A DNA stretch of 30,925 bases from Promethearchaeota archaeon (GCA_048941265.1 JBHLNT010000035.1:1-30925); one strand, 5' to 3'. Counted from the first letter of the stretch, positions 5,327-30,925 are shown. Numbers and translations are program-made. The notes: generated by a model from the letters alone, not told the origin.

Positions 5327-5860
5327 ATGCGAACGGCTACCTTTAAAATTTGCATTTTTGGAAGTGGCGGGGTGGGAAAGACCACTCTTATTCAACGATA
5401 TGTTACAGGTCAATTCAGCCAGAGTACGAAAATGACGATCGGGGTTGATATCGTTTCTAAAAAGGTACAAATAGAAGACTGGTTTGTCACTCTGCAGATA
5501 TGGGATTTCGGGGGTGAAGAACGTTTTAGATTTTTCTTACCTGCATATGCCAGAGGATCCTTTGGAGGCATTTATATGTATGATATTACACGGTATACTT
5601 CTTTAATGGATTTAGATGAGTGGTTATCTGTGTTCAAGAAAGGATGTGGATATGATCTTAACCCAATTCCTATATTAATGGTTGGCGGAAAATTAGATCT
5701 TGCGGAAGGACGAGCAATTCCTTTTGAACAAGCTTTTAGTTTTGCCCAATCTCGTCATATTTATAAAATTATTGAATGTTCTGCCAAAACAGGTCAAAAT
5801 GTAGAGTCAATTTTTACAGAAATTACTTCTAGAATAATGAAAAATATGTCCCTGATTTAA
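5327..5860 (+). CDS. Rab-like small GTPase (Ras superfamily)
   Basis: G1 GSGGVGKT, G2 TIGVD, G3 WDFGGE, G4 GGKLD, G5 CSAK. No C-terminal Cys prenylation motif. Confidence 0.93.
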   Translation: MRTATFKICIFGSGGVGKTTLIQRYVTGQFSQSTKMTIGVDIVSKKVQIEDWFVTLQIWDFGGEERFRFFLPAYARGSFGGIYMYDITRYTSLMDLDEWLSVFKKGCGYDLNPIPILMVGGKLDLAEGRAIPFEQAFSFAQSRHIYKIIECSAKTGQNVESIFTEITSRIMKNMSLI

Positions 5861-6039
5861 AATATCTAATTTTAAACATTTTATATTTCTACTTTCTAAG
5901 TTATATATTGGATATATTGGCTATAATATATTTTTTAATAAAATATAAGTAAATTATAAATAAATTTTAAATCATAACTTATATAAAATATTAGATAGAA
6001 ATTTATCTAATAATTGGGATTGAATGAGGATTTAGTAAA

Positions 6040-6573
6040 GTGCGAACCGCGACATTTAAAATATGTCTTTTTGGAGATGGAGGTGTTGGAAAAACAACCC
6101 TTACCCAAAGATATGTGAGCGGTCGTTTTGATAAGAGCACAAAAATGACAATTGGGGTCGATATTGCTACTAAGATTCTAGAAGTCAGGGATTGGAAAGT
6201 AACTCTCCAAATATGGGATTTCGGAGGTGAAGAACGTTTTAGATTTTTCTTACCCGCATATGCCAGAGGTTCATTCGCAGGGATTTTTATGTATGACATT
6301 ACCAGATATAGTACTTTAATGGATTTTGACACATGGATGGATGTTTTTCAAAAAGGGATAGATTTTAAATCGAAGGCGATTCCTATCATTATGGTTGGAG
6401 GAAAGATAGATCTCGACCATAAGAGGGGTGTTTTTTATGATGAGGCATTTAATTTCGCGCTCTCAAGAAATATTTTCACTCTTATAGAATGTTCTTCGAA
6501 AACTGGGGAGAATGTTGAATTAATCTTCAAACTAATCTCCCATATAGTTATGAAAGAAATGGATTATATTTAG
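6040..6573 (+). CDS. Rab-like small GTPase, tandem paralog of 5327..5860
   Basis: G1 GDGGVGKT, TIGVD, WDFGGEERFRFFLPAYARG (identical to the upstream paralog), GGKID, CSSK. GTG start, same length (177 aa). Confidence 0.93.
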   Translation: MRTATFKICLFGDGGVGKTTLTQRYVSGRFDKSTKMTIGVDIATKILEVRDWKVTLQIWDFGGEERFRFFLPAYARGSFAGIFMYDITRYSTLMDFDTWMDVFQKGIDFKSKAIPIIMVGGKIDLDHKRGVFYDEAFNFALSRNIFTLIECSSKTGENVELIFKLISHIVMKEMDYI

Positions 6574-8245: not shown

Positions 8246-8407
8246 ATGGCCGCACCAAAAACAAAATCACAAACAAAGATATTAATATCTAGTTGTGATA
8301 AGTGCGGCAGTGTAATGGTTGAGAGGATGCTTGCGATAAGAAATTCGAAAGCATTTATTAAGATACTACAATGTAAAGTTTGTAGACATTGGAAAAAAAT
8401 TAACTAA
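8246..8407 (+). CDS. 53-aa zinc-ribbon microprotein
   Basis: Manual translation MAAPKTKSQTKILISSCDKCGSVMVERMLAIRNSKAFIKILQCKVCRHWKKIN*. Contains CxxCG-x21-CxxC. SD-like gggag at 8232-8236. Confidence 0.75.
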   Translation: MAAPKTKSQTKILISSCDKCGSVMVERMLAIRNSKAFIKILQCKVCRHWKKIN

Positions 8408-8581: not shown

Positions 8582-9646
8582 TTGAATAAGAAAACGCTTT
8601 CTCCAATAGGATGGCTAAATAGCCTTACAGGTTCGTGTGTTGTGATCTTTGGTTGTATGTTTGGACTTTATTTCATGTACAAATCTAAACAATCTAACGC
8701 CAAGCTATTATTTTTTACAGGAATTTTAACGATCTTTGTAAGTCTTCTATATTTAGGACAATTTATTGATTTTTTAGCAATTCTAATTACCGGAGAGAAT
8801 TTACATCCATATCAGCTATATGCAATCTTATGTTATATATGGGTTGCTCCAGCCGTGATTTTCGGTTTCTATTTAGGAGCTGAAATAATAATTCCAGAGA
8901 GAAAAAAAGTTATCGTAATAATATACACTTTTATAGGGATTATTTTTGAAGTGTTTTTATTTTTAGATACGAATAATTCCTTTATTTTCAGACTCCCTGC
9001 TCATCCAGGAGAAGATATAATTGATGTAAATTTCAATAGAACTTCTCCAACATTCATATTAATTGTCTTTTTCTTACTTTCTGCTTTAATTTTCAATGGC
9101 GTTGGATTTATTTATAAAAGCTTTCAATCAACTGGAATAATAAGGAAACGATTTTTGTTTTTATCAATTGGATGGATAATGTTTGTACTTGCAGGAGCTC
9201 TTGATTCTTTAACATCACCGGGAATTGGTCTATTTTTAGTAAGAATTGGAATGCTAAGTAGCTCTTGGTTTTGGTATTTTGGCTTAAGGGAGGAGAAGGT
9301 TAAGGCAATTGAAATATCTAATAAGAAGTCAATGTCCGAGGAGTCTGATATAACGTTAATAGAAAGACTTTCTTTGTTACACGATGAGCAACTTTCAGAA
9401 AAGGATGTTAATTTATATAGAGAACAAATTATTTGTTTAGTATGTAAAGGAGACGCATTAGGATTTGTTTATATTTGTCCAGATTGTAAAGCTTTATATT
9501 GTGAAAAGTGCGCACGATCTTTGATTGATTTGGAAAATGCCTGTTGGATATGTAACTGTGCTATTGATAAATCAAAACCCGTCAAAATCTATAAAAAAAA
9601 GGAAATTGAAGATTTTAAAAAGCAAAAGAATAATCTTAAAAACTGA
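8582..9646 (+). CDS. 7-TM membrane protein with C-terminal C4C4 RING-like zinc finger
   Basis: Seven hydrophobic segments in aa ~10-235. CLVC-x10-CPDC-x4-CEKC-x10-CWIC at nt ~9434-9553. Confidence 0.8.
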   Translation: MNKKTLSPIGWLNSLTGSCVVIFGCMFGLYFMYKSKQSNAKLLFFTGILTIFVSLLYLGQFIDFLAILITGENLHPYQLYAILCYIWVAPAVIFGFYLGAEIIIPERKKVIVIIYTFIGIIFEVFLFLDTNNSFIFRLPAHPGEDIIDVNFNRTSPTFILIVFFLLSALIFNGVGFIYKSFQSTGIIRKRFLFLSIGWIMFVLAGALDSLTSPGIGLFLVRIGMLSSSWFWYFGLREEKVKAIEISNKKSMSEESDITLIERLSLLHDEQLSEKDVNLYREQIICLVCKGDALGFVYICPDCKALYCEKCARSLIDLENACWICNCAIDKSKPVKIYKKKEIEDFKKQKNNLKN

Positions 9647-9765
9647 AGATTAATCACTCTAGTGTAATTTTAAAATAATGTTTTTATGTTGAATATGACT
9701 ATTTACTTAAGAACAAACAAAATGAGTGAAGATCAATCTCATCTTCAAAGAAAATGTGAAAATTA

Positions 9766-10866
9766 ATGGTATCTTCCTTTGTATTACTTGAGGGAATCAT
9801 TACAATTGGAAATTATGCTTTAGGGGTGAGTATGGGATTATATGCTCTATATAAAGCAACAAAAACGGAAGCAAAAATCTTAAAATATTTTGGCATTACG
9901 ATTTTATTTTTAAGTCAAATCTATTTAGTTACTATTTTGGATTTTTTGACTATTATCATAACAGGAAATAATATGGATAATTCTTTCGGATTATTTTCAC
10001 TTCTCACTTATATTTGGATTGGTCCCTCTATTATTTTAGGAATGTATATTATTTTTGAAGTTACAATTCCAGAGAAAAAGTGGTATATTTTACCAATTTA
10101 CGTTGTATTAAGCGTTGTTTTTGAAATTTTATTATTTTTAGATCCTTTAAATTCTTTTAAGATATCATATACTACTCCGGATGGAGGAATTATTCACTCT
10201 AGTTTGGTTTTTGGTACAGTGCTTTTTGTAATTCTTAGTTTTATATTCGTGTCAGCCTTTATACTTTTTGGAGTAGGATTTTTTATTATAGGAATCCAAA
10301 CAACAGGAATACTTAGAGAAAAATTTATTATTTTATCATATGCTTTTATAGCATTTCTTAGTTTAGGTGCAGTAGATATTTTAACTACTCCCGGTATTTA
10401 TGTAATTTTTCTAAGGATAGGTGAGTTAAGTTGTGCTGTGGTTTTTTATTTTGGAATAAAAGAGGAATCGGTTGAAGTTTCAGAAACTAAAATTATAAAA
10501 TCCGAATTTGAGGGCCCAAAGATTTCTTTGGTAACTTCCCTCGAAACTTATTCTAAACCAGATGAGTTGTCTGAGGAGGCCATACAGTATATGAGGGAAC
10601 AAACGCTTTGCATAATTTGTAAAGCTAAACTCCAGGGTTTTGTATCCATTTATATATGCCCGCAATGTAAAACATTCTACTGTGAAAAATGTGCAAAAGA
10701 GTTAGTACAAATAGATAACATGTGTTGGGGTTGCATGAAAGCGATAGATGATACCAAGCCTATTAAACCGATTGAGGAGATAGATAAAGATATCATTGTT
10801 GATAGTTCTCAAAAGCCTCCAAAAAAGTTAAAAAAGAAAAATAATATTGCAGAAAAGCATGAATAA
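9766..10866 (+). CDS. 7-TM membrane protein with C-terminal C4C4 RING-like zinc finger (paralog of 8582..9646)
   Basis: Aligns end to end with the upstream gene (ITG.N, YIW..P, IPE.K, FE..LFLD..NSF, TG..R..F, T.PG, R.G). CIIC-x12-CPQC-x4-CEKC-x10-CWGC at nt ~10609-10734. Confidence 0.8.
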   Translation: MVSSFVLLEGIITIGNYALGVSMGLYALYKATKTEAKILKYFGITILFLSQIYLVTILDFLTIIITGNNMDNSFGLFSLLTYIWIGPSIILGMYIIFEVTIPEKKWYILPIYVVLSVVFEILLFLDPLNSFKISYTTPDGGIIHSSLVFGTVLFVILSFIFVSAFILFGVGFFIIGIQTTGILREKFIILSYAFIAFLSLGAVDILTTPGIYVIFLRIGELSCAVVFYFGIKEESVEVSETKIIKSEFEGPKISLVTSLETYSKPDELSEEAIQYMREQTLCIICKAKLQGFVSIYICPQCKTFYCEKCAKELVQIDNMCWGCMKAIDDTKPIKPIEEIDKDIIVDSSQKPPKKLKKKNNIAEKHE

Positions 10867-11032
10867 ATTTAATTTATAGGAATATTTTAATAAGAAATGT
10901 ATTTTAAAAACTCTAAATTAGTTTTAAGTGTGTCATCAAAATTAATATATATGTTGGCACTATTTATTAATTAATACAATCAAAATCAATAATTATCGTG
11001 CCAAAATAAGATTATTACCAAGGGTGGAAAAC

Positions 11033-11287
11033 ATGAAAATAAGTGTAGAGGATTCACGCACTGGAAAATTAATTAAACTTGACGTAAAAGAGCACCATAT
11101 AATAGAAAAAATAGTAGACATTATCATAAAACATATGGGCATAATTAGCGTCGAACAACGCTCTTATACCTTAGTCTTGAATGGCCAAGAATTGCCAACA
11201 AATATTACAGTAAAGGATGCTGTACATAAATTCGGTTTAAAAGAAAATGATAAATTAGCATTATGGGCTAGAGTGGTAGGAGGATAA
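11033..11287 (+). CDS. ubiquitin-like protein (beta-grasp) ending in di-glycine
   Basis: MKISVED..TGKLIKLDV (compare ubiquitin MQIFVKTLTGKTITLEV), LVLNGQEL, GLKENDKLAL, and C-terminal ARVVGG*. Alternative GTG start at 11024. Confidence 0.88.
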   Translation: MKISVEDSRTGKLIKLDVKEHHIIEKIVDIIIKHMGIISVEQRSYTLVLNGQELPTNITVKDAVHKFGLKENDKLALWARVVGG

Positions 11288-11351: not shown

Positions 11352-11933
11352 TTAATCATCAATAATAATGATATCATCAGATTCTTCGGCAGCTTTTTTT
11401 TCTTCTTCTCCTTCTTTAATATTATACTGGTTTCTAAGCTCATCCATAGTATTTTGTTTGAAAAACTCAGCGGCCTCCGCACATATGGGATAATTTAGGG
11501 GATCTTCAGGATTTGGATTTTCAACTAGCAATTTTAAGGCTTTCACCGTCGTTTCTAAATCAGATAATCGGGACCATTTCTTCAAAACATTTAAACAGAT
11601 ATATCCTGTCCCAGGTTTATCTGAAGATGATAGTTCTACGGGATGAATATTAGGATGAAAGATATCCGAATACCAAGCGAAGTCAATTCCTCCTGGATAT
11701 GGAAATGAACGATTTATCTTCAAAAACACGCGATGACTCCATTTCGGAACTAAATCTATGCCTTCACTATCCTTTACATATTCAAAACCTAAAGCTTTAA
11801 TATTAATCATTATTTCGATGCTATTTTCTTCTCGAATAATTGAATTTTCTTCAATAACTGCTAAACTCTTTAATCCCTTTAACTCGTTTTCGAGTCTGTC
11901 CTTCCATATTTCTTGAGGTAGTTCTGGACTCAT
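11352..11933 (-). CDS. ubiquitin-conjugating enzyme E2 (UBC fold)
   Basis: RLENEL, FPYP, IFHPNI (HPN), GYICLNVLKKWS (catalytic Cys), LLVENPNPEDPLN..AAE, and an acidic C-tail. ATG at 11933 has gaggg upstream; the ORF track extends to a TTG at 11957. Confidence 0.93.
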   Translation of the reverse strand: MSPELPQEIWKDRLENELKGLKSLAVIEENSIIREENSIEIMINIKALGFEYVKDSEGIDLVPKWSHRVFLKINRSFPYPGGIDFAWYSDIFHPNIHPVELSSSDKPGTGYICLNVLKKWSRLSDLETTVKALKLLVENPNPEDPLNYPICAEAAEFFKQNTMDELRNQYNIKEGEEEKKAAEESDDIIIIDD

Positions 11934-12067
11934 AAGAAGACCCTCTTTAATTCCCAACCCATTTTTTTTATAATTAATGATAATTTATATTAAAAAATTT
12001 ATTTTTTTCGTATATAATAATAACTTTACAACTTTTTGATTTTGGTCTATTTTGTAAAAATTTTTTG

Positions 12068-12946
12068 TTACTTTTTATATGAACACACCCAGCATTCATC
12101 ATTTTTTATTTTGGTAATAATTTCAAATGAATTTGTTAATCCATTATAATTTAATTGTTTACCAATTAATGGTTCTCCTATATCAGGGTTCCATTCCCCG
12201 CTTTTTTTGAACGAATCTAACCCTAATAAAAACTTTATTACTTGTTGAGATTGTATACCTCCTATAATAGCAGTGGTGGTGATAAGAGTTGCCATTTTTC
12301 CTATAGTTTCCCCATTTGCAGATTCGATTTCCTGACCAGTACAAGAATACTTTTTCCACATAAGATCCAAATCCATACCTGAGACACCGCATTGCATGCA
12401 CGCCGCATCCTTAACTTTCGAATAGACAGCCTGAACTGTTCCGTAAAATTCATCTATCCCAGAATCTACGAAAGGAACTCCGTAATAATATGCATAATTG
12501 TTAGATTGTAGTCGGGCTTCGATATTATCAACGCAGGAACAGATAACGTCTGATTTTTGATACAAACTTTTATCGATATCGTTTAAATCTTCCTTAAAAG
12601 CAATGATTTCTGTTTCTCCTAAATTTTTTACGGCCTTTTTTACCACATCTACTTTATATTCTTGTTTTTTCGCACTTTTTTTATCAAATAATACACAACG
12701 ATTAAGATTGGATATGTTAATAGTATCATAATCAATCAAAATTAGTTTTCCAATACCCGTTAATACTAAATTTTTTATAAGTTCATTACCTGTTGCTCCA
12801 GCTCCAATAACCATTACTGTAGCTTTAGAAATTTTTGTTTGATCCCATCCTATTATTCTTTTTTGACGATCATATTTATCTTCATCAAAAGAGCCCTCAC
12901 TTAAAATTTCATATTCTTCTTCATTTTTATTTTCAGATAATTTCAT
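12068..12946 (-). CDS. ubiquitin-activating enzyme E1-like (ThiF/UBA family)
   Basis: YDRQ, VIGAGATG, DYDTINISNLNR, CVDNIEAR, Zn pairs CMQC and CWVC, and a candidate catalytic Cys in KYSCT. Confidence 0.92.
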   Translation of the reverse strand: MKLSENKNEEEYEILSEGSFDEDKYDRQKRIIGWDQTKISKATVMVIGAGATGNELIKNLVLTGIGKLILIDYDTINISNLNRCVLFDKKSAKKQEYKVDVVKKAVKNLGETEIIAFKEDLNDIDKSLYQKSDVICSCVDNIEARLQSNNYAYYYGVPFVDSGIDEFYGTVQAVYSKVKDAACMQCGVSGMDLDLMWKKYSCTGQEIESANGETIGKMATLITTTAIIGGIQSQQVIKFLLGLDSFKKSGEWNPDIGEPLIGKQLNYNGLTNSFEIITKIKNDECWVCSYKK

Positions 12947-12995: not shown

Positions 12996-13484
12996 CTATG
13001 GCTTAATAATTGCATAACTTAAATTTTTATATTTTTTATTCGAATTATGGTCTAAAGTAAAGAATTCAAGTTCATTCTTTATGGGGTCAACAACTAAAGC
13101 TACTTGGTAAGATTCAGGAAAAAAAAACTCTTGTGTATGGATATCAGTAGAGGAAAGAAATGGTCCAAATCCAGGATGGCTATGCCACCATCCAACAATT
13201 CTTAATTCTTCATTATTTTTTTTATGCTTTAATTTCTGAAATTTTTTCTCGTATTTCCCAGCTGCACCTTCTATTTGGGATGTTGAATATTTATCACTAT
13301 GGACTGCTCCTATGATAAAAAGCTGGTCTTCAATGACAATATAATTTTTTTCATTCCATTTATAGATATTTCCTATTAAATATCCAAAGATTTCTAATTT
13401 CTCTTTTTTACAAACTTTTGTAATTTCGTCTAATATATTTTTATAAATATAAACGGGGAATACAAAATTTTCTTCAATACTCAT
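12996..13484 (-). CDS. JAB/MPN+ (JAMM) metalloprotease, Rpn11-like deubiquitinase
   Basis: EIFGYLIG...IVGWWHSHPGFGPFLSSTDIHTQ (E...HxH-x7-S-x2-D) and ALVVDP. Confidence 0.93.
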   Translation of the reverse strand: MSIEENFVFPVYIYKNILDEITKVCKKEKLEIFGYLIGNIYKWNEKNYIVIEDQLFIIGAVHSDKYSTSQIEGAAGKYEKKFQKLKHKKNNEELRIVGWWHSHPGFGPFLSSTDIHTQEFFFPESYQVALVVDPIKNELEFFTLDHNSNKKYKNLSYAIIKP

Positions 13485-13541: not shown

Positions 13542-14471
13542 TTAAAAAACTTGCATTTGCTTCATTTCAATCTTTTCGACTACAGATTTTTGCAATATAT
13601 CTTTCAGTAATGAAATGAATTTATCTTTTGCATCATCTTCCGTAGCAGAATACCCATATGTTTTTATTTTTTCGAACATTTCTTCGATTTTTTGTGGTTC
13701 AAAAGCGTATTCTTTTAAATCTTGAAAGTTTGCGATAATATAAAAATCAGTGTTTTTGACCAAAGGTTTTAGTCGGGAAAATAAGTTTTTTGTTCTGGAG
13801 AGATTGCTTGCCGCTGAGTTAGATACGATACAAATAGCATCCACTGAATTTAGTAACGGTCGGTAGAGTTTAGATTTATCAACTAATTCGCTTAAGTCCA
13901 TTTCTCTTAACGTTATTTGTTTTATATTTCTTAAATCAGTAATGTCTATAGGTTTTTGAATAATCTCGTTTAAATCTTCATCCAATTCTAATATTGTTTC
14001 ACCAGGAAATAAGTTCATTATTGTGGTTTTTCCTACCCCTGGCTCGCCAACTAATAATACTTTAGGAGGTATAAATATATTTTCTTCTACATATTCATCA
14101 AACTCGTCGAAAATTGAAACGCATCCACTAAATGCTTTAATATTTTCTCTATATCGTCCCATGAATTCATTTTTCATAAGTTCAAGCTTCACTCTAGCTT
14201 CTTCTTCAGAGTCATCTATATCTATGACTAATACAAACATACAGCCAAATTCTTCATCGTAAGAGTAAATAAAATTGAAATTTCTAAAGTTTAGTGAATC
14301 TATGGCACCTCCTTGGATCTCTTTTGCAAAACTACTTATAGCATTGAGAAACCCGCCAACTAAATCTTCTTCAATTATATTTTCATTCTTTTGAATTTTT
14401 CCAATAAAATCTTTTGAATAACACAATACTCCACCAGGGGCCATTATTAAAATACGCGAGATAATTTTCAA
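13542..14471 (-). CDS. N-terminal longin-like domain fused to a divergent small-GTPase domain
   Basis: aa 1-133: RILIMAPGGVLCYSKDF...LVGGFLNAISSFAKE...MFVLVID...FDEFDEYV (longin pattern). aa 137 onward: KVLLVGEPGVGKTT, ANFQD, YSAT. TTG start preceded by GGAGG. Confidence 0.75.
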   Translation of the reverse strand: MKIISRILIMAPGGVLCYSKDFIGKIQKNENIIEEDLVGGFLNAISSFAKEIQGGAIDSLNFRNFNFIYSYDEEFGCMFVLVIDIDDSEEEARVKLELMKNEFMGRYRENIKAFSGCVSIFDEFDEYVEENIFIPPKVLLVGEPGVGKTTIMNLFPGETILELDEDLNEIIQKPIDITDLRNIKQITLREMDLSELVDKSKLYRPLLNSVDAICIVSNSAASNLSRTKNLFSRLKPLVKNTDFYIIANFQDLKEYAFEPQKIEEMFEKIKTYGYSATEDDAKDKFISLLKDILQKSVVEKIEMKQMQVF

Positions 14472-17606: not shown

Positions 17607-18122
17607 TTATTCATTTTTTATAAGCCATTGTGCCATCATTTTAAATACTTTATGAACATTATATCCTGTTTTTGATGATGTCTTTATATAATCCATCATA
17701 TTGAATGTATCCTTGATATTTAGGGCAGTATCATCATTAATTGCAATAGCTTCCTCAAGATCCAATTTGGTTCCAACAAGTATAATTGGTAGATCTAAGT
17801 CGTGTATTCTGAAAATATTAATCCATTCTAAAATTCCACTCATTTTTGGCATTCGAGTCAAATCTATTAAGAGTAATGCACCTCTCGCACCCATTACATA
17901 ACTAGACATAAGATGCCTAAATTGCTCTTGACCTCCTAAATCCCAGAGTTGAAGTGCACATTTTATGCCATCAAAATTCATCTGCTTTATGAAGAAATCA
18001 ACGCCTACAGTCATAATGGTACTCTCATCAAACATACCATCTACAAATCTGCGTAATAGTGTTGTTTTCCCTACACTAGCATCGCCACCGATTAGAATTT
18101 TAAAAAGGAAATATTTTTGCAT
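17607..18122 (-). CDS. Rab-like small GTPase
   Basis: LFKILIGGDASVGKT, TVGVDF, LQLWDLGGQEQFR, VGTKLD, TSSKTG. No prenylation motif. Confidence 0.93.
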   Translation of the reverse strand: MQKYFLFKILIGGDASVGKTTLLRRFVDGMFDESTIMTVGVDFFIKQMNFDGIKCALQLWDLGGQEQFRHLMSSYVMGARGALLLIDLTRMPKMSGILEWINIFRIHDLDLPIILVGTKLDLEEAIAINDDTALNIKDTFNMMDYIKTSSKTGYNVHKVFKMMAQWLIKNE

Positions 18123-26014: not shown

Positions 26015-26476
26015 ATGATTGAAAATATTTCTAAAGAAAGAAAAAGTAAGGATTTACTATTTTTTAATGAAGCTATCGAATATTTCAATAGATTTGATAA
26101 GAAAGATTTTGTTTTTAATCAAGATCCTACCCAATTAAGCCCAAATCAATTAAGAGATCAGATGCTCACAGAGTTAAATAATTTAAGAGAGATCATTGCG
26201 AATCATCCCGACTTAAAATTAAAAAATCTTAGCGAAGAAGAGAAAAAACTGTATTCAGAATTTATGAAATTCTACTCAACTTGTCCCATATGCCTCGAGA
26301 CTTTGCATTATGCGAATCTGAAGAAATTCTATTTTGATGAGGACACTCAGGAAATTAAAGAAAAATTAATTCAATTCATGAATATTAATGAAAAAAAGAG
26401 AATTAAAAGATTGAATTATGATTTCGGAATACCTTGCTGTAAGTGTTTTAAGCAATATTTTGAAGATATAGAATAA
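26015..26476 (+). CDS. hypothetical protein, probable zinc-binding (CPIC...CCKC)
   Basis: 153-aa ORF with a helical N-terminal half and two distant CxxC pairs. No family recognised. Confidence 0.65.
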   Translation: MIENISKERKSKDLLFFNEAIEYFNRFDKKDFVFNQDPTQLSPNQLRDQMLTELNNLREIIANHPDLKLKNLSEEEKKLYSEFMKFYSTCPICLETLHYANLKKFYFDEDTQEIKEKLIQFMNINEKKRIKRLNYDFGIPCCKCFKQYFEDIE

Positions 26477-26748: not shown

Positions 26749-29325
26749 TTGGATTTGAGAGATAATGCTAGTGAAAGAATAAAAAGGTTCCGAAGACGTT
26801 TTCTTGATGAAATCCCATTTGTTTCTATTGAGAGAGCAAAGTATTACACTGAGAAGTGGAAGGAGACTGAAAATAGCGCACTTCCCATTGGAATTCGAGT
26901 TGCAAGGGCTATGAAGCATGTCTATGAGAATATGAATTTTGATATAGATCCAGATGATCGCATTGTGGGGACATGGACAGAAAATTTTCTTGGCATACCG
27001 ATAGATATTGAGAGAGGCTTATTTAATGGAGTTTTTGAGATTGAATTTGATAAAAAGAAAATGCGTAAATTCGGTAGTAACGGTAATAAAAGTTTGATGG
27101 AATTTTTGGAAAAAAAAGGGATAAATCCCTTAGAACTCTTAACACATACCAAAAAGATCGGAGCTGCCATGCCTGGTCTCGGAACGGATACTCTGGATAC
27201 AAGAAAAATAAATCCTTATCAAATCCGAGAGGAAGATAAAAATCTCTTACTCAATGAACTACTCCCTTATTGGAATGGGAAAACTATAGCCGATTTGCTA
27301 GGCATAGCATTTAAAGAATCTGGAATTTACCCTGGTGAATTTGAAGATTTTATAGAAAGCTTACCGCGTACCACAGGTAAAAGTGATTATATTACCTCTC
27401 TGGGATCTGCTCTTGGAGTGTGGCAAGGTCATTTAATCCTTGATCATGAAACACCTCTTAAAAAAGGGGTTCTGGCAATGCACCAAGAAGTTGAGGAAAT
27501 GATAAAGGATAATGCTTACAAAGCACAAGAGGAATTAGAATTTCTACAATCTATAGAAATCGCTCTTGAAGGGATAATAACTTACGCACGTAGGCTTGCT
27601 GAAAAGATTCGAGAGGAGTTAACTAAATGTTCTGATTCTGAAAAAAAGAGAATATTGTCTCAAATTCTAGAAATCTGTAAAAAAGTTCCATTTTATCCCG
27701 CTGAAACATTTCGAGAAGCAGTTCAATCATATTGGACAGTTAAAACTGCTGTAGAATTAGCAATTCCGTTTAATGTTCATGCTCCAGGAAGATTAGATCA
27801 AATATTATATCCATATTTTATTAAAGAAATTCAAGAAGGAAGAATAGCGGAAGAGGAAGTTCGCGAATTATGTGAAGAGTTGTTTTTAAAAGTAATGAGT
27901 CATAATATGCGCCCTAATTCGAATGCATCGAGTGAATTTAGCCAACGCTATGAGGGTTCTGAACCAATTACTTTGGGAGGGCTTACTGAGTCAGGGGAAG
28001 ATGCAACAAATGAATTAACATATATTATGTTAGACGCAGCAGATCGTTCGAAAGCATCACTTAATTTTGCTGTGAGAATTCATAAAAACACACCTGATGA
28101 ATTGTTAATGAAGGTAGCTGATCTCCATTATAACGGAGTCTCTAGTGTATCTTTAATGAATGATGAAATAGCCATTCGAGCATTAAAAAATCGGGGCTTT
28201 TCAGAAGAGGACGCAAATGGCTATGCAATAACTGGATGCGTTGACATATGTTCTCCGGGAAAGACTGGAGGAGAGGGATTTTCATCAATATTATTATGCC
28301 GTACCCTTGATATGGCACTTCGCAATGGAGATGCGATGACGCTGGTGGGAATTGTTAAAGATGTGGGTCTTAAAACAGGTGATCCCGAATCATTTAGAAG
28401 CTTTGAAGATTTTCTTAATGCTTTTTATACCCAAATTGACAATATGATTAAAAAAATTGTTGATGCGTCCATCATCCGAGACAGCCTTTATGCAAATTAC
28501 TTGCCCGCCCCACTAATTTCGGCATTTATGAGAGGCTGTCTTGAGAATAAAAAAGATATAGCTGAAGGTGGTGCAATCTATGATTGTGAAGGAATACTTT
28601 TTATGACAAGTATAGCCAATACTATTGATTCCCTATATGTCATTAAAAAATTAGTCTTTGAACAGAAAAAATTCTCACTGAGAGAGTTGATTGATGCTAT
28701 TGATAATAATTTTAGTAATGGTTATGAATGGATTCATAAACTAATTTTGGAGTTAGATGGAAAATGGGGTAATGGTAATCCTGAATCGGATGAATTGGCA
28801 AAAAAAATTACCTCACATATGTTTAAAGAAACTTATAAATACAGAACTTTTAAAGACGGATTCTATGCGCCCTTTATAAACAGTATGACAACGCACACGT
28901 ATGATGGGCGGATTTCAATTGCTACACCTGATGGTAGACTTGCGGCAAGACCATTCGCAGCAAGTTGTAATCCTTATAATGTTGAGAGCCATGGACCGAC
29001 TGGTGTTTTAAGATCGGTTTCAGCTCTTCCATATGAGCATGTTATGGGATGTGCCGTTAATATTAGAATGCATCCGTCTGGAATTGGTAAATCTGAAGAG
29101 GGTAAGAAAAAATGGATCTCATTAATAAAAACTTATTTCAAGCTAGGAGGAGAGCAACTACAACCGACAGTGGTTTCAACAGAAGTTCTCAAAGCTGCTC
29201 AAAAAGATCCTAAGAGCTATCGAAATATCATTGTCAAGGTCGGAGGCTATTCAGCTTATTTCACAGATTTAGGAAAAGAGATCCAAGATGAGATCATTTC
29301 AAGAACCGAACATGATGGAGTCTAA
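26749..29325 (+). CDS. glycyl radical enzyme (PFL2/GRE superfamily), substrate unknown
   Basis: SIERA..YT, PAETFREAVQ, PGRLDQ.LYPY, ITLGG, DATNELT, Cys loop TGCVD, KWGNG, ATPDGR.A, GPTGVLRSV, and Gly loop IVKVGGYSAYF. TTG start. Confidence 0.92.
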   Translation: MDLRDNASERIKRFRRRFLDEIPFVSIERAKYYTEKWKETENSALPIGIRVARAMKHVYENMNFDIDPDDRIVGTWTENFLGIPIDIERGLFNGVFEIEFDKKKMRKFGSNGNKSLMEFLEKKGINPLELLTHTKKIGAAMPGLGTDTLDTRKINPYQIREEDKNLLLNELLPYWNGKTIADLLGIAFKESGIYPGEFEDFIESLPRTTGKSDYITSLGSALGVWQGHLILDHETPLKKGVLAMHQEVEEMIKDNAYKAQEELEFLQSIEIALEGIITYARRLAEKIREELTKCSDSEKKRILSQILEICKKVPFYPAETFREAVQSYWTVKTAVELAIPFNVHAPGRLDQILYPYFIKEIQEGRIAEEEVRELCEELFLKVMSHNMRPNSNASSEFSQRYEGSEPITLGGLTESGEDATNELTYIMLDAADRSKASLNFAVRIHKNTPDELLMKVADLHYNGVSSVSLMNDEIAIRALKNRGFSEEDANGYAITGCVDICSPGKTGGEGFSSILLCRTLDMALRNGDAMTLVGIVKDVGLKTGDPESFRSFEDFLNAFYTQIDNMIKKIVDASIIRDSLYANYLPAPLISAFMRGCLENKKDIAEGGAIYDCEGILFMTSIANTIDSLYVIKKLVFEQKKFSLRELIDAIDNNFSNGYEWIHKLILELDGKWGNGNPESDELAKKITSHMFKETYKYRTFKDGFYAPFINSMTTHTYDGRISIATPDGRLAARPFAASCNPYNVESHGPTGVLRSVSALPYEHVMGCAVNIRMHPSGIGKSEEGKKKWISLIKTYFKLGGEQLQPTVVSTEVLKAAQKDPKSYRNIIVKVGGYSAYFTDLGKEIQDEIISRTEHDGV

Positions 29326-29406
29326 AAAATCCAGATTTTAATAGCAATAATACTTATTTTTTAATAATCAAGACTAATTAATTTTAAGTATAGAATAGAA
29401 CGTCAA

Positions 29407-30315
29407 ATGGATGGTATAATATTTGATATTCAGCATTATGCTGTTTATGATGGTCCCGGTATACGTACAACAATTTTCCTAAAGGGATGTCCTTTGCGCT
29501 GTTTATGGTGTCATAATCCAGAATCCCAAGAACTTAAACCTGAGATTTCATATTTCAAAGAAAAATGTGCAAAATGTGGCTTGTGCGTAGATGCATGTCC
29601 AAATGATGCAATCACGCTAACTGATGAAGGTGTTCTACGGGATAGAAATTTATGTATCGTATGTGCTAAATGCGTAGATGCGTGTCCAAATGATGTTATG
29701 CAATTGGTAGGAAAATTCATTTCCGTCAATGAGATTATTGAGATTGCGGAAAGAGACAAACCTTTTTATGATACCTCTGGAGGAGGTATTACGATATCGG
29801 GAGGGGAGCCCACAATGCAGTTAAGATTTTTATTGGCACTCCTTAAAAATTTTAAAGAAAAAGGAATTCATACCGCGATAGAAACCTGTGGATTCTTTAA
29901 TGAAAATATTATTGATGAGCTTGTTGAATTAGTTGATCTATTTCTATTTGATATAAAGCATCTTGACCCAAATGAACATAAGAAATATACTGATGTTTCT
30001 AACGAAAAAATCCTAAATAATTTTGCTAAAATTCATTCCAAGGTAGGGAATAATAGAATAATCGCACGTATTCCCATTATTCCTGGTGTTAATACCGATC
30101 TTAAAACTATTGAAGAAATCGCAAATTTTTTAAAAAAAATCAATTATTCTGGTCCTGTTCATTTGATGCCGTATAATAAAATGGCGAAAACTAAATATGA
30201 GAAAGTGGGCAAAGGGCATTTGTATAAAGATATGGGAGATCTAACAGAAGAAAATTTAGAGGAAATTACTAAAAAGTTTGAGAACTATAATCTTAAAGTT
30301 GTATGTAATCGCTAA
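29407..30315 (+). CDS. glycyl-radical enzyme activating enzyme (radical SAM with ferredoxin insertion)
   Basis: DGPGIRT..FLKGCPLRCLWCHNPES, two CxxCxxCxxxCP motifs, GITISGGEP, HTAIETCG, DIKH, and RIPIIPG. Confidence 0.95.
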   Translation: MDGIIFDIQHYAVYDGPGIRTTIFLKGCPLRCLWCHNPESQELKPEISYFKEKCAKCGLCVDACPNDAITLTDEGVLRDRNLCIVCAKCVDACPNDVMQLVGKFISVNEIIEIAERDKPFYDTSGGGITISGGEPTMQLRFLLALLKNFKEKGIHTAIETCGFFNENIIDELVELVDLFLFDIKHLDPNEHKKYTDVSNEKILNNFAKIHSKVGNNRIIARIPIIPGVNTDLKTIEEIANFLKKINYSGPVHLMPYNKMAKTKYEKVGKGHLYKDMGDLTEENLEEITKKFENYNLKVVCNR

Positions 30316-30484
30316 TACATAATATTTTCAAATTTAATACTTTAGTTCAATTTTTAAACAACTAAATAAATTCCATAATAATCCAATTATAGTCTAAACT
30401 TAATCTTTTTAAATAAAAATCTTAAAATAATAAAAAAATAATACATAACTTGAAATATTTTAAAATTTAAACCGAGCTGAACAA

Positions 30485-30925
30485 ATGTTGGAAATTATAG
30501 ATAACGCGAGCGAAAGAATAAAAAATATTCGCAGAAGATTTCTTGATGATAAGACTCTAATTTCTATTGAAAGAGCTAAATATTATACTGAAAAATGGAC
30601 TGAAACTGAGAACTATAATTTATCCGTTGGTGTTAGAATTGCCTTATCTATGAAGAATGTTTATGAAAATATGCAAATCTATATAGACCCAGATGATCGT
30701 ATTGCGGGTAAATGGACAGAAAGCTTCCTCGGTATACCTATTGATATTGAGCGCGGTATATGGAACAAAATATTAGAGACTGAAATTGATAAAAAAGTCA
30801 TGAGAAAATTTGAAAAGGAGTTTAACAAATCCTTTATAGAATATATGGATAAAAAAGGAATAGATCTTATTAAATATATAGAAGAGATAAAAGAGATGGG
30901 CGCTGCTATACCAACCATGGGAAGC
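30485..30925 (+). CDS. second glycyl radical enzyme paralog, 3'-truncated by the window edge
   Basis: Manual translation MLEIIDNASERIKNIRRRFLDDKTLISIERAKYYTEKW...IDPDDRIAGKWTESFLGIPIDIERG...GAAIPTMGS, collinear with the N-terminus of 26749..29325. Absent from the ORF track because there is no stop codon in the window. Confidence 0.9.
   Translation, partial: MLEIIDNASERIKNIRRRFLDDKTLISIERAKYYTEKWTETENYNLSVGVRIALSMKNVYENMQIYIDPDDRIAGKWTESFLGIPIDIERGIWNKILETEIDKKVMRKFEKEFNKSFIEYMDKKGIDLIKYIEEIKEMGAAIPTMGS

Follow-up and report, generated by a model that had tools for sequence, protein, structure and literature searches.

Seven-helix membrane proteins with a C4C4 RING-fold finger beside a ubiquitin-like cassette in a Promethearchaeota genome: candidate membrane E3 ligases

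The window, by which we mean the whole stretch of 30,925 nucleotides analysed here, is contig C241 of a 5.0 Mb genome. Two neighbouring genes encode the related membrane proteins A and B, and they are followed by a gene for a ubiquitin-like protein (Ubl), which is faced from the opposite strand by genes for an E2, an E1-like enzyme, a JAB isopeptidase and a GTPase-like protein (Table 1).

Table 1. Position and description of the membrane proteins, their domains and the neighbouring cassette genes (coordinates of the window)
Feature	Coordinates	Strand	Description
7TM-RING protein A	8582..9646	+	354 aa, TTG start
A, seven-helix membrane domain (residues 8-235)	8603..9286	+	Predicted GPCR/rhodopsin-like arrangement, TM4-TM5 hairpin loop; AlphaFold, fold searches
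A, C4C4 RING-fold finger (C285-C324)	9434..9553	+	Sequence pattern, profile search, structural matches of model
7TM-RING protein B	9766..10866	+	366 aa; 42% identical to A (over 316 aa)
B, C4C4 finger (C282-C323)	10609..10734	+	Sequence pattern
Ubl ending GG	11024..11287	+	Likely start ATG 11033, 84 aa; directly after B
Divergent E2	11352..11957	-	Likely start ATG 11933; UQ_con above cut-off
E1-like ThiF-family activating enzyme	12068..12946	-	Conserved SCTG cysteine
JAB/MPN isopeptidase	12996..13484	-	WWHSHP motif
Small-GTPase-like protein	13542..14471	-	Weak Roc/Ras/Arf and Rem/Miro/Arf matches

The original prediction gave both paralogs seven transmembrane segments, a linker and a terminal eight-cysteine finger, and both the ORF coordinates and this shared architecture were confirmed, by the ORFs themselves, by an AlphaFold model of A and, for B, by hydropathy and alignment to A (the structure model covers A, and the seven segments of B rest on the latter two). 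Neither protein matched any Pfam or NCBIfam family above cut-off, a whole-protein search of the Atlas returned only Promethearchaeota clusters, none of them carrying a name, and the named homologues of A are labelled mainly Promethearchaeota or Lokiarchaeota, which, together with the several small GTPases encoded in the window, marks the source as a Loki-type Asgard archaeon. A scan for promoters and terminators gave 41 versus 40 counts, i.e. chance level, with a bacterial consensus, and no ESCRT genes were recognised within the window.

Several other genes lie in the same stretch. Upstream of the cassette there is a small Cys-rich ORF (8249-8407, plus strand, about 52 aa, CxxC...CxxC) that is conserved in four relatives. 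Three Ras-family small GTPase genes are found near the cassette (5327-6573, 17607-18122) and are syntenic in genomes G001 and G003, and a restriction-modification-like gene near the cassette is also present in 3 of 8 relative loci of family f1. Further downstream, a 153-aa ORF (26015-26476, CPIC...CCKC) is possibly zinc-binding and has no family above cut-off, and 26749-30925 holds what we take, from the sequence, to be a glycyl-radical-enzyme-like gene together with the activase gene and the beginning of a second paralog.

In the AlphaFold model of A (mean pLDDT 88.5, from an alignment of 95 sequences) the membrane helices span residues 8-38, 41-70, 78-103, 105-128, 156-182, 185-210 and 215-235, a two-stranded hairpin loop joins helices 4 and 5, and the linker is of low confidence. 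Lys and Arg together number 3, 3 and 4 in loops 1, 3 and 5 and 5 in the C-terminal tail, versus 0, 2 and 0 in loops 2, 4 and 6. By the positive-inside rule this distribution would place the finger of A in the cytoplasm, in agreement with the side originally predicted. The best structural match of the bundle is GABA-B (Z 14.7, rmsd 4.3, 230 residues aligned), although class C, A, B and F GPCRs and rhodopsins all score about alike (Z 11.4-14.7), sequence identity to GPCRs is 5-18%, and Z-scores near 13-14 between helical bundles may reflect a common arrangement rather than descent. Microbial rhodopsins bind retinal through a Lys in helix 7; helix 7 of neither A nor B contains a Lys, the conserved Arg221 being present instead, and a retinal protein is thereby ruled out. 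As to the HisKA_7TM-like input that had been proposed, the HisKA_7TM profile (PF16927) has no match in A or B at E 0.1, and of the 95 homologues three match it weakly at a limit of 0.01 (best E 1.4e-4), so that membership of this family would be tentative at best. Polar residues conserved in or beside the helices (D63, W87, Y97, E101 and R221) fit a candidate ligand pocket. The membrane domain also exists in a finger-free form of about 235 aa, and in a FastTree of 95 such domains the finger would have to be gained or lost 3 to 5 times, a rough figure with long branches flagged.

The finger of A reads C285-x2-C-x10-C-x2-C-x4-C-x2-C-x10-C-W-x-C324, and that of B (C282-C323) has the same spacing but for x12 in place of the first x10. 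The residue following the last Cys is Asn in A and Met in B rather than Arg, so that the atypical features pointed out at the start, a last pair of the form CWxC and a missing linchpin Arg, are present in both proteins and recur across homologues. The exact eight-Cys pattern occurs in 12 ORFs of the genome versus never in 20 rounds of shuffling those ORFs of at least 100 aa that hold at least eight Cys, and thus it is not due to chance. The finger belongs to a large family, in which 940 clusters (50% identity) match at E 1e-10 or better, and the eight-ligand spacing is conserved in 227 of 230 homologous fingers. Of the features of canonical RING E3s, the E2-contact Ile/Val is retained, with V or I preceding the second ligand in 226/227 fingers, whereas the helix Trp, the Pro and the linchpin Arg/Lys are absent: the helix Trp position is Leu in 212/227, the residue after the seventh ligand is Trp for Pro in 227/227, and the linchpin position (n = 229) is N in 116, D in 50, E in 37, K in one and R in none; Lys at this position is seen in the distant f4 and stand-alone finger branches.

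A profile built from 26 finger sequences matches RNF4 (E 1.3e-5), RBBP6, p44, PCGF6 and TRIM37. Modelled alone, the finger has a pLDDT of 75.8 (about 90 in its core), with strands at 32-34 and 41-43 and a helix at 44-53, and its structural matches are mainly RING/U-box chains (Z 4.0-5.8; best Foldseek E 5e-3), led by TRIM37 (Z 5.8, rmsd 3.0, 61 aligned) and including TRAF3 (Z 5.6) and RNF213 (Z 5.3, rmsd 2.1). Third in the list is a protein of the archaeal 30S ribosomal subunit, which is not a RING (Z 5.5), and Z-scores below 6 are modest, as expected at about 50 residues. Weak sequence matches to C1_2, B-box, FYVE and DZR were considered; no PHD, C1, B-box or FYVE titles were noted among the 50 structural matches, which makes such folds less likely at most. 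Taken together, the profile and structural matches favour the RING fold that had been predicted, and this fold match implies that the finger would bind two zinc ions in a cross-brace. The p44-like spacing noted earlier was likewise recovered, as x11 variants of the finger align to p44 ungapped over all eight Cys (E 4e-4 to 7e-4). A special kinship with p44 was not, since RNF4 and RBBP6 score better by sequence and p44 ranks only 25 by structure.

The finger is a plug-in tail found on several unrelated host domains. There are 17 copies in this genome, 15 of them on contigs other than that of the window, and the hosts comprise the 7TM family of the window, a second family with 7-9 TM segments, an MFS-like protein, an LRR protein and a 1078-aa surface protein. 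In family f4, surface proteins of 700-2300 aa with beta-helix, Ig or PKD domains terminate in the finger; examples are L102:172-7008, L103:394-6987, L104:798-2948 and L105:874-4734, which are single-pass and carry beta-helix, Ig, PKD or TSP3 domains. A stand-alone RING-like ORF of about 65 aa (L091-L099, e.g. L091:2949-3170), with a CxxH first site and a C-V/I-K-C-K end, occupies a distinct conserved locus that includes longin-like genes, whether or not the cassette is present in the genome, and is a possible source of the mobile finger. Second Ubl copies adjoin finger genes away from the E2 locus (G123:C95:2926-3576; G250:C37:40458-41002), as if the finger and Ubl genes moved together.

Judging from their residues, the catalytic motifs of the cassette E1, E2 and JAB are intact, the JAB retaining its metal motif. 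The Ubl has a weak Rad60-SLD match and weak ubiquitin/RUB1 matches (best E 0.023); its GG is conserved, and most homologues carry a short C-terminal extension beyond it. HPN, the catalytic Cys and the loop-4 PY of the E2 are present in 117/117 homologues, and its loop 7 is WSRL, not WSPA; by family search the genome has three E2s, the other two of which keep W-[ST]-P-S in this loop. The GTPase-like protein, whose N-terminal domain is presumably a longin, keeps the P-loop, lacks DxxG and has ANFQD at G4; in a longer form of 870-890 aa (L020:1712-4333) it is extended by a helical region and by a domain of the carbon-nitrogen hydrolase type. The same genome has a second Ubl-E1-E2-JAB cluster (G000:C327:780-5016), with a canonical WSPS E2 and, at the contig end, a membrane protein with a Cys-rich terminal finger.

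We surveyed 59 loci of the cassette E2 from 57 genomes, leaving out three f4 loci whose E2 has none of the Ubl, E1, JAB and finger genes beside it. Gene order is stable across the 59 loci, which contain the Ubl in 56 cases, the E1 in 57, the JAB in 56 and the GTPase in 53, and the main copies of the Ubl are 65-99% identical. A finger gene is present in 42/59 and immediately precedes the Ubl in 29/59; many of these loci end at contig edges, and where at least 3 kb is available on both flanks the finger gene is found in 32 of 39. The hosts adjoining the cassette, on either flank, are members of two membrane families plus a single soluble protein. Since a tandem finger pair, as in the window, occurs in just 9 of the 29 loci in which the Ubl is immediately preceded by a finger gene, the heterodimer of A and B originally envisaged is neither required nor supported. 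In one genome (G022) a presumably TIR-like ORF (L019:1-378) lies in the usual place of the finger gene before the Ubl.

Finger and cassette are inherited together. The 261 genomes of the phylum that are at least 85% complete were searched at thresholds of 1e-30 (E2) and 1e-12 (finger), set so as to keep out generic E2s and the stand-alone finger; scoring was limited to 22 candidates per genome, which makes the copy counts in this survey lower bounds. The E2 subfamily and the Ubl were each found in 56 genomes and the finger in 61; of the 261 genomes, 55 have both E2 and finger, one the E2 only, six the finger only and 199 neither, counts in which relatives are non-independent data points. Among these genomes the finger was found only in families f1, f4 and f7, close Lokiarchaeal relatives. 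Six genera are mixed, with E2/finger in 2/2 of 3 genomes (g1), 14/16 of 33 (g2), 1/1 of 5 (g3), 2/2 of 3 (g6), 1/1 of 2 (g9) and 34/35 of 41 (g11), and within them the same genomes carry E2 and finger, barring four in g2 and one in g11. As controls, any UQ_con domain is found in 41/41 genomes, i.e. generic E2s do not track the finger, and neither does the 7TM domain track finger or cassette, being present in 36/41 relatives, among them 17/17 good genomes, just five of which have the cassette E2. With 15 of 17 fingers on other contigs, the co-occurrence cannot be due to linkage alone. Among the exceptions, G258 lacks the finger; its E2 is a fragment at a contig end and its Ubl match is interrupted by stops. 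Of the six finger-only genomes, the cassette E1 of G117 is cut by a contig end, G225 keeps Ubl and GTPase while E1 and E2 orthologues are absent, G230 and G234 have no cassette and one intact finger each, G018 has no cassette and finger variants, and G270 is the sixth. In the 41-genome set, G029, G004, G002 and G021 (64-82% complete) also have the finger without the E2.

From the architecture, gene neighbourhood, co-inheritance and motifs observed, together with the predicted folds and a weak predicted RING-E2 contact, we propose that A and B are membrane RING E3 ligases serving one dedicated cascade (probability roughly 0.7). The sensor-E3 idea of the original prediction thereby gains strong genomic support, as regards a predicted ligase, from the Ubl, E2, E1 and JAB neighbours and from co-inheritance. 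In such a cascade the JAB would trim the pro-Ubl to its GG, the E1 would activate the Ubl and the E2 would carry it, the RING would set E2~Ubl beside a lysine of the receptor tail itself or of a partner, and the JAB could reverse the mark. One E2 would then work with 1 to about 20 ligases in each genome through a RING grafted on different sensors, and the first proteins to consider as substrates are the receptors and the co-encoded longin-GTPase. The ligase might be turned on when the membrane domain binds a ligand or oligomerises; we put such gating by outside signals at a little under an even chance. The predicted complex of E2 and finger scored 0.54, which the tool rates as weak, versus 0.00 for the best of three controls. 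The mark is reached by 116/157 solved and 2/215 mismatched pairs, but with a score of 0.60 or less by just 18 of the solved pairs and by both of the mismatched ones. At least 96% of the contacts recur between runs and partner pLDDT is at least 75, although RING-E2 is a textbook pair, which the tool may pass by having memorised it. The lack of linchpin and of helix Trp and Pro, the WSRL loop 7 of the E2, the modest Z-scores, the finger-only genomes and the three f4 loci whose E2 stands by itself all count against an E3. In the available part of the Caldiarchaeum study the linchpin mutant R69A impairs the cascade, and the equivalents of the finger V/I and of the E2 PY residues are essential (PMC5654768).

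One may also consider that the finger is a non-catalytic RING-fold docking module, by which the receptors would be bound to a protein of the cassette (longin-GTPase or JAB) or be singled out as substrates, the E2 acting unaided or together with some other E3. The finger of p44 is a docking module for p34, and the missing linchpin and helix Trp, the CWxC ending and the ungapped alignment to p44-like spacing would all suit such a role; moreover, as the GTPase co-occurs in 53 of the 59 loci, co-inheritance cannot single out the E2 as the partner of the finger. Still, the E2-binding V/I and the PY loop of the E2 are conserved, there is the weak predicted E2 contact, and no other RING gene is a regular member of the 59 loci, as searched with the profile of this finger only, which makes docking an unlikely explanation. 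We regard it as more improbable again that the cassette is a mobile defence or conflict system whose membrane RINGs sense viruses or competing organisms and attach the tag to proteins of the invader or the host, a scenario that would allow for E3 activity and depart from our proposal only in what the tagging is for. Mobile prokaryotic ubiquitin operons with JAB are likened to restriction-modification systems in the available part of PMC3417536, presence of the cassette is patchy inside genera, and there are the restriction-modification-like genes mentioned above; yet one has to set against this the stable gene order, the conservation of the Ubl and the spread of fingers over hosts that include an MFS transporter and surface proteins of the LRR and beta-helix types.

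Finally, the association might be purely historical, a finger gene having come to lie beside the cassette in one ancestor, with joint inheritance and no functional link. Finger and E2 are indeed nearly confined to families f1 and f4, and some genomes retain fingers without the E2, but joint presence or absence inside six genera, unlinked copies that track the cassette, three host types on both flanks and a 7TM domain that does not track the cassette by itself leave this account very little room.

If A and B are membrane E3s, reciprocal changes in the RING and in loop 7 of the E2 may, as a hypothesis, explain why the finger tracks this E2 and not the other two. A more far-reaching and tentative suggestion is that this Lokiarchaeia branch has a third receptor wiring, in which GPCR-shaped and single-pass sensors with a plug-in RING output would act on one private E2 via a co-evolved non-canonical interface (RING Trp for Pro, E2 Arg-Leu for Pro-Ala, no linchpin), and reversible Ubl tagging would control the co-encoded GTPase or the receptors' own turnover.

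Tested archaeal ubiquitin cascades found so far use one small soluble RING. The Caldiarchaeum subterraneum Ub/E1/E2/srfp/Rpn11 system (PMC5654768) and the Helarchaeal E1/E2/RING cascade (bioRxiv 10.1101/2023.07.25.550441), the latter acting on UEV-Vps23, are, in the available parts of both reports, similar to the window in the clustered GG-ending Ubl, often with a pro-peptide, in the E1 and JAB, in the E2 catalytic Cys and loop-4 PY, and in the RING Ile/Val. The window has the GG-Ubl, E1, catalytic-Cys E2 and JAB clustered as in the Caldiarchaeum type, the adjacent RING being a C4C4 tail on a membrane protein rather than a small soluble RING-H2 of the srfp type. In contrast to the single soluble E3 of these cascades, which in Caldiarchaeum is a RING-H2 with Trp and linchpin Arg, the RING studied here is of the C4C4 type, has CWxC as its last pair, lacks the linchpin, forms part of membrane proteins and is present in up to about 20 copies that lie mostly off the cassette, which has a GTPase gene built in.

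Prok-RING_1 (PF14446) was reportedly linked to Ub/E1/E2/JAB by Burroughs, Iyer and Aravind in 2011, membrane-anchored versions included. We rejected membership of A and B, which are far below its cut-off of 29.1 bits (B scores 16.8, its finger alone 20.9, and A has no match); other proteins of the same genome do score as Prok-RING_1. With TFIIH p44/Ssl1 and Not4 the finger has its all-Cys ligands in common, but neither sequence nor structure places these proteins (Not4 Z 4.4, p44 Z 4.3) ahead of ordinary RINGs. p44/Ssl1 is a TFIIH subunit with an N-terminal vWA domain, and membership of that family was rejected too, since the N-terminal part here is a seven-helix bundle with neither vWA nor transcription-factor context. 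HisKA_7TM proteins, E. coli DgcT/CdgI (PMC10760455) and GPCRs combine a seven-helix bundle with a cytoplasmic output, as is predicted for A, although in the prokaryotic 7TM sensors described in the available part of that source the output is a kinase or cyclase rather than a RING. Asgard 7TM proteins have been reported earlier, and an Asgard class C GPCR cluster is described with no RING fusion noted in the available part of PMC13734099; we found no description of Asgard 7TM-RING proteins in the literature, and the asCOG tables of Liu et al. may label the family.

In eukaryotes, RNF43/ZNRF3, MARCH, Hrd1 and the sterol-sensing RNF139/RNF145 join a membrane or extracellular sensing part to a cytoplasmic RING, and the single-pass f4 proteins with large ectodomains have an RNF43-like layout, although no homology was found between the membrane parts of the eukaryotic E3s and those of the window. 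Many modular E3s on one E2, some of them in membranes, are to our knowledge usually treated as a eukaryotic step. On the membrane E3 reading this family would show that step in an Asgard lineage, joined to a GPCR-shaped domain, and the case bears on prokaryotic Ubl-ligation signalling and on how a linchpin-free RING activates an E2; the cassette parts are small, named and clustered, so that the cascade could be rebuilt in vitro. As the finger is found only in close Lokiarchaeal relatives, it looks like a parallel invention rather than the ancestor of eukaryotic E3s, and, if the proposal is true, a prokaryote would have ubiquitin-based signal transduction through a one-E2-many-E3 network, in parallel to eukaryotes.
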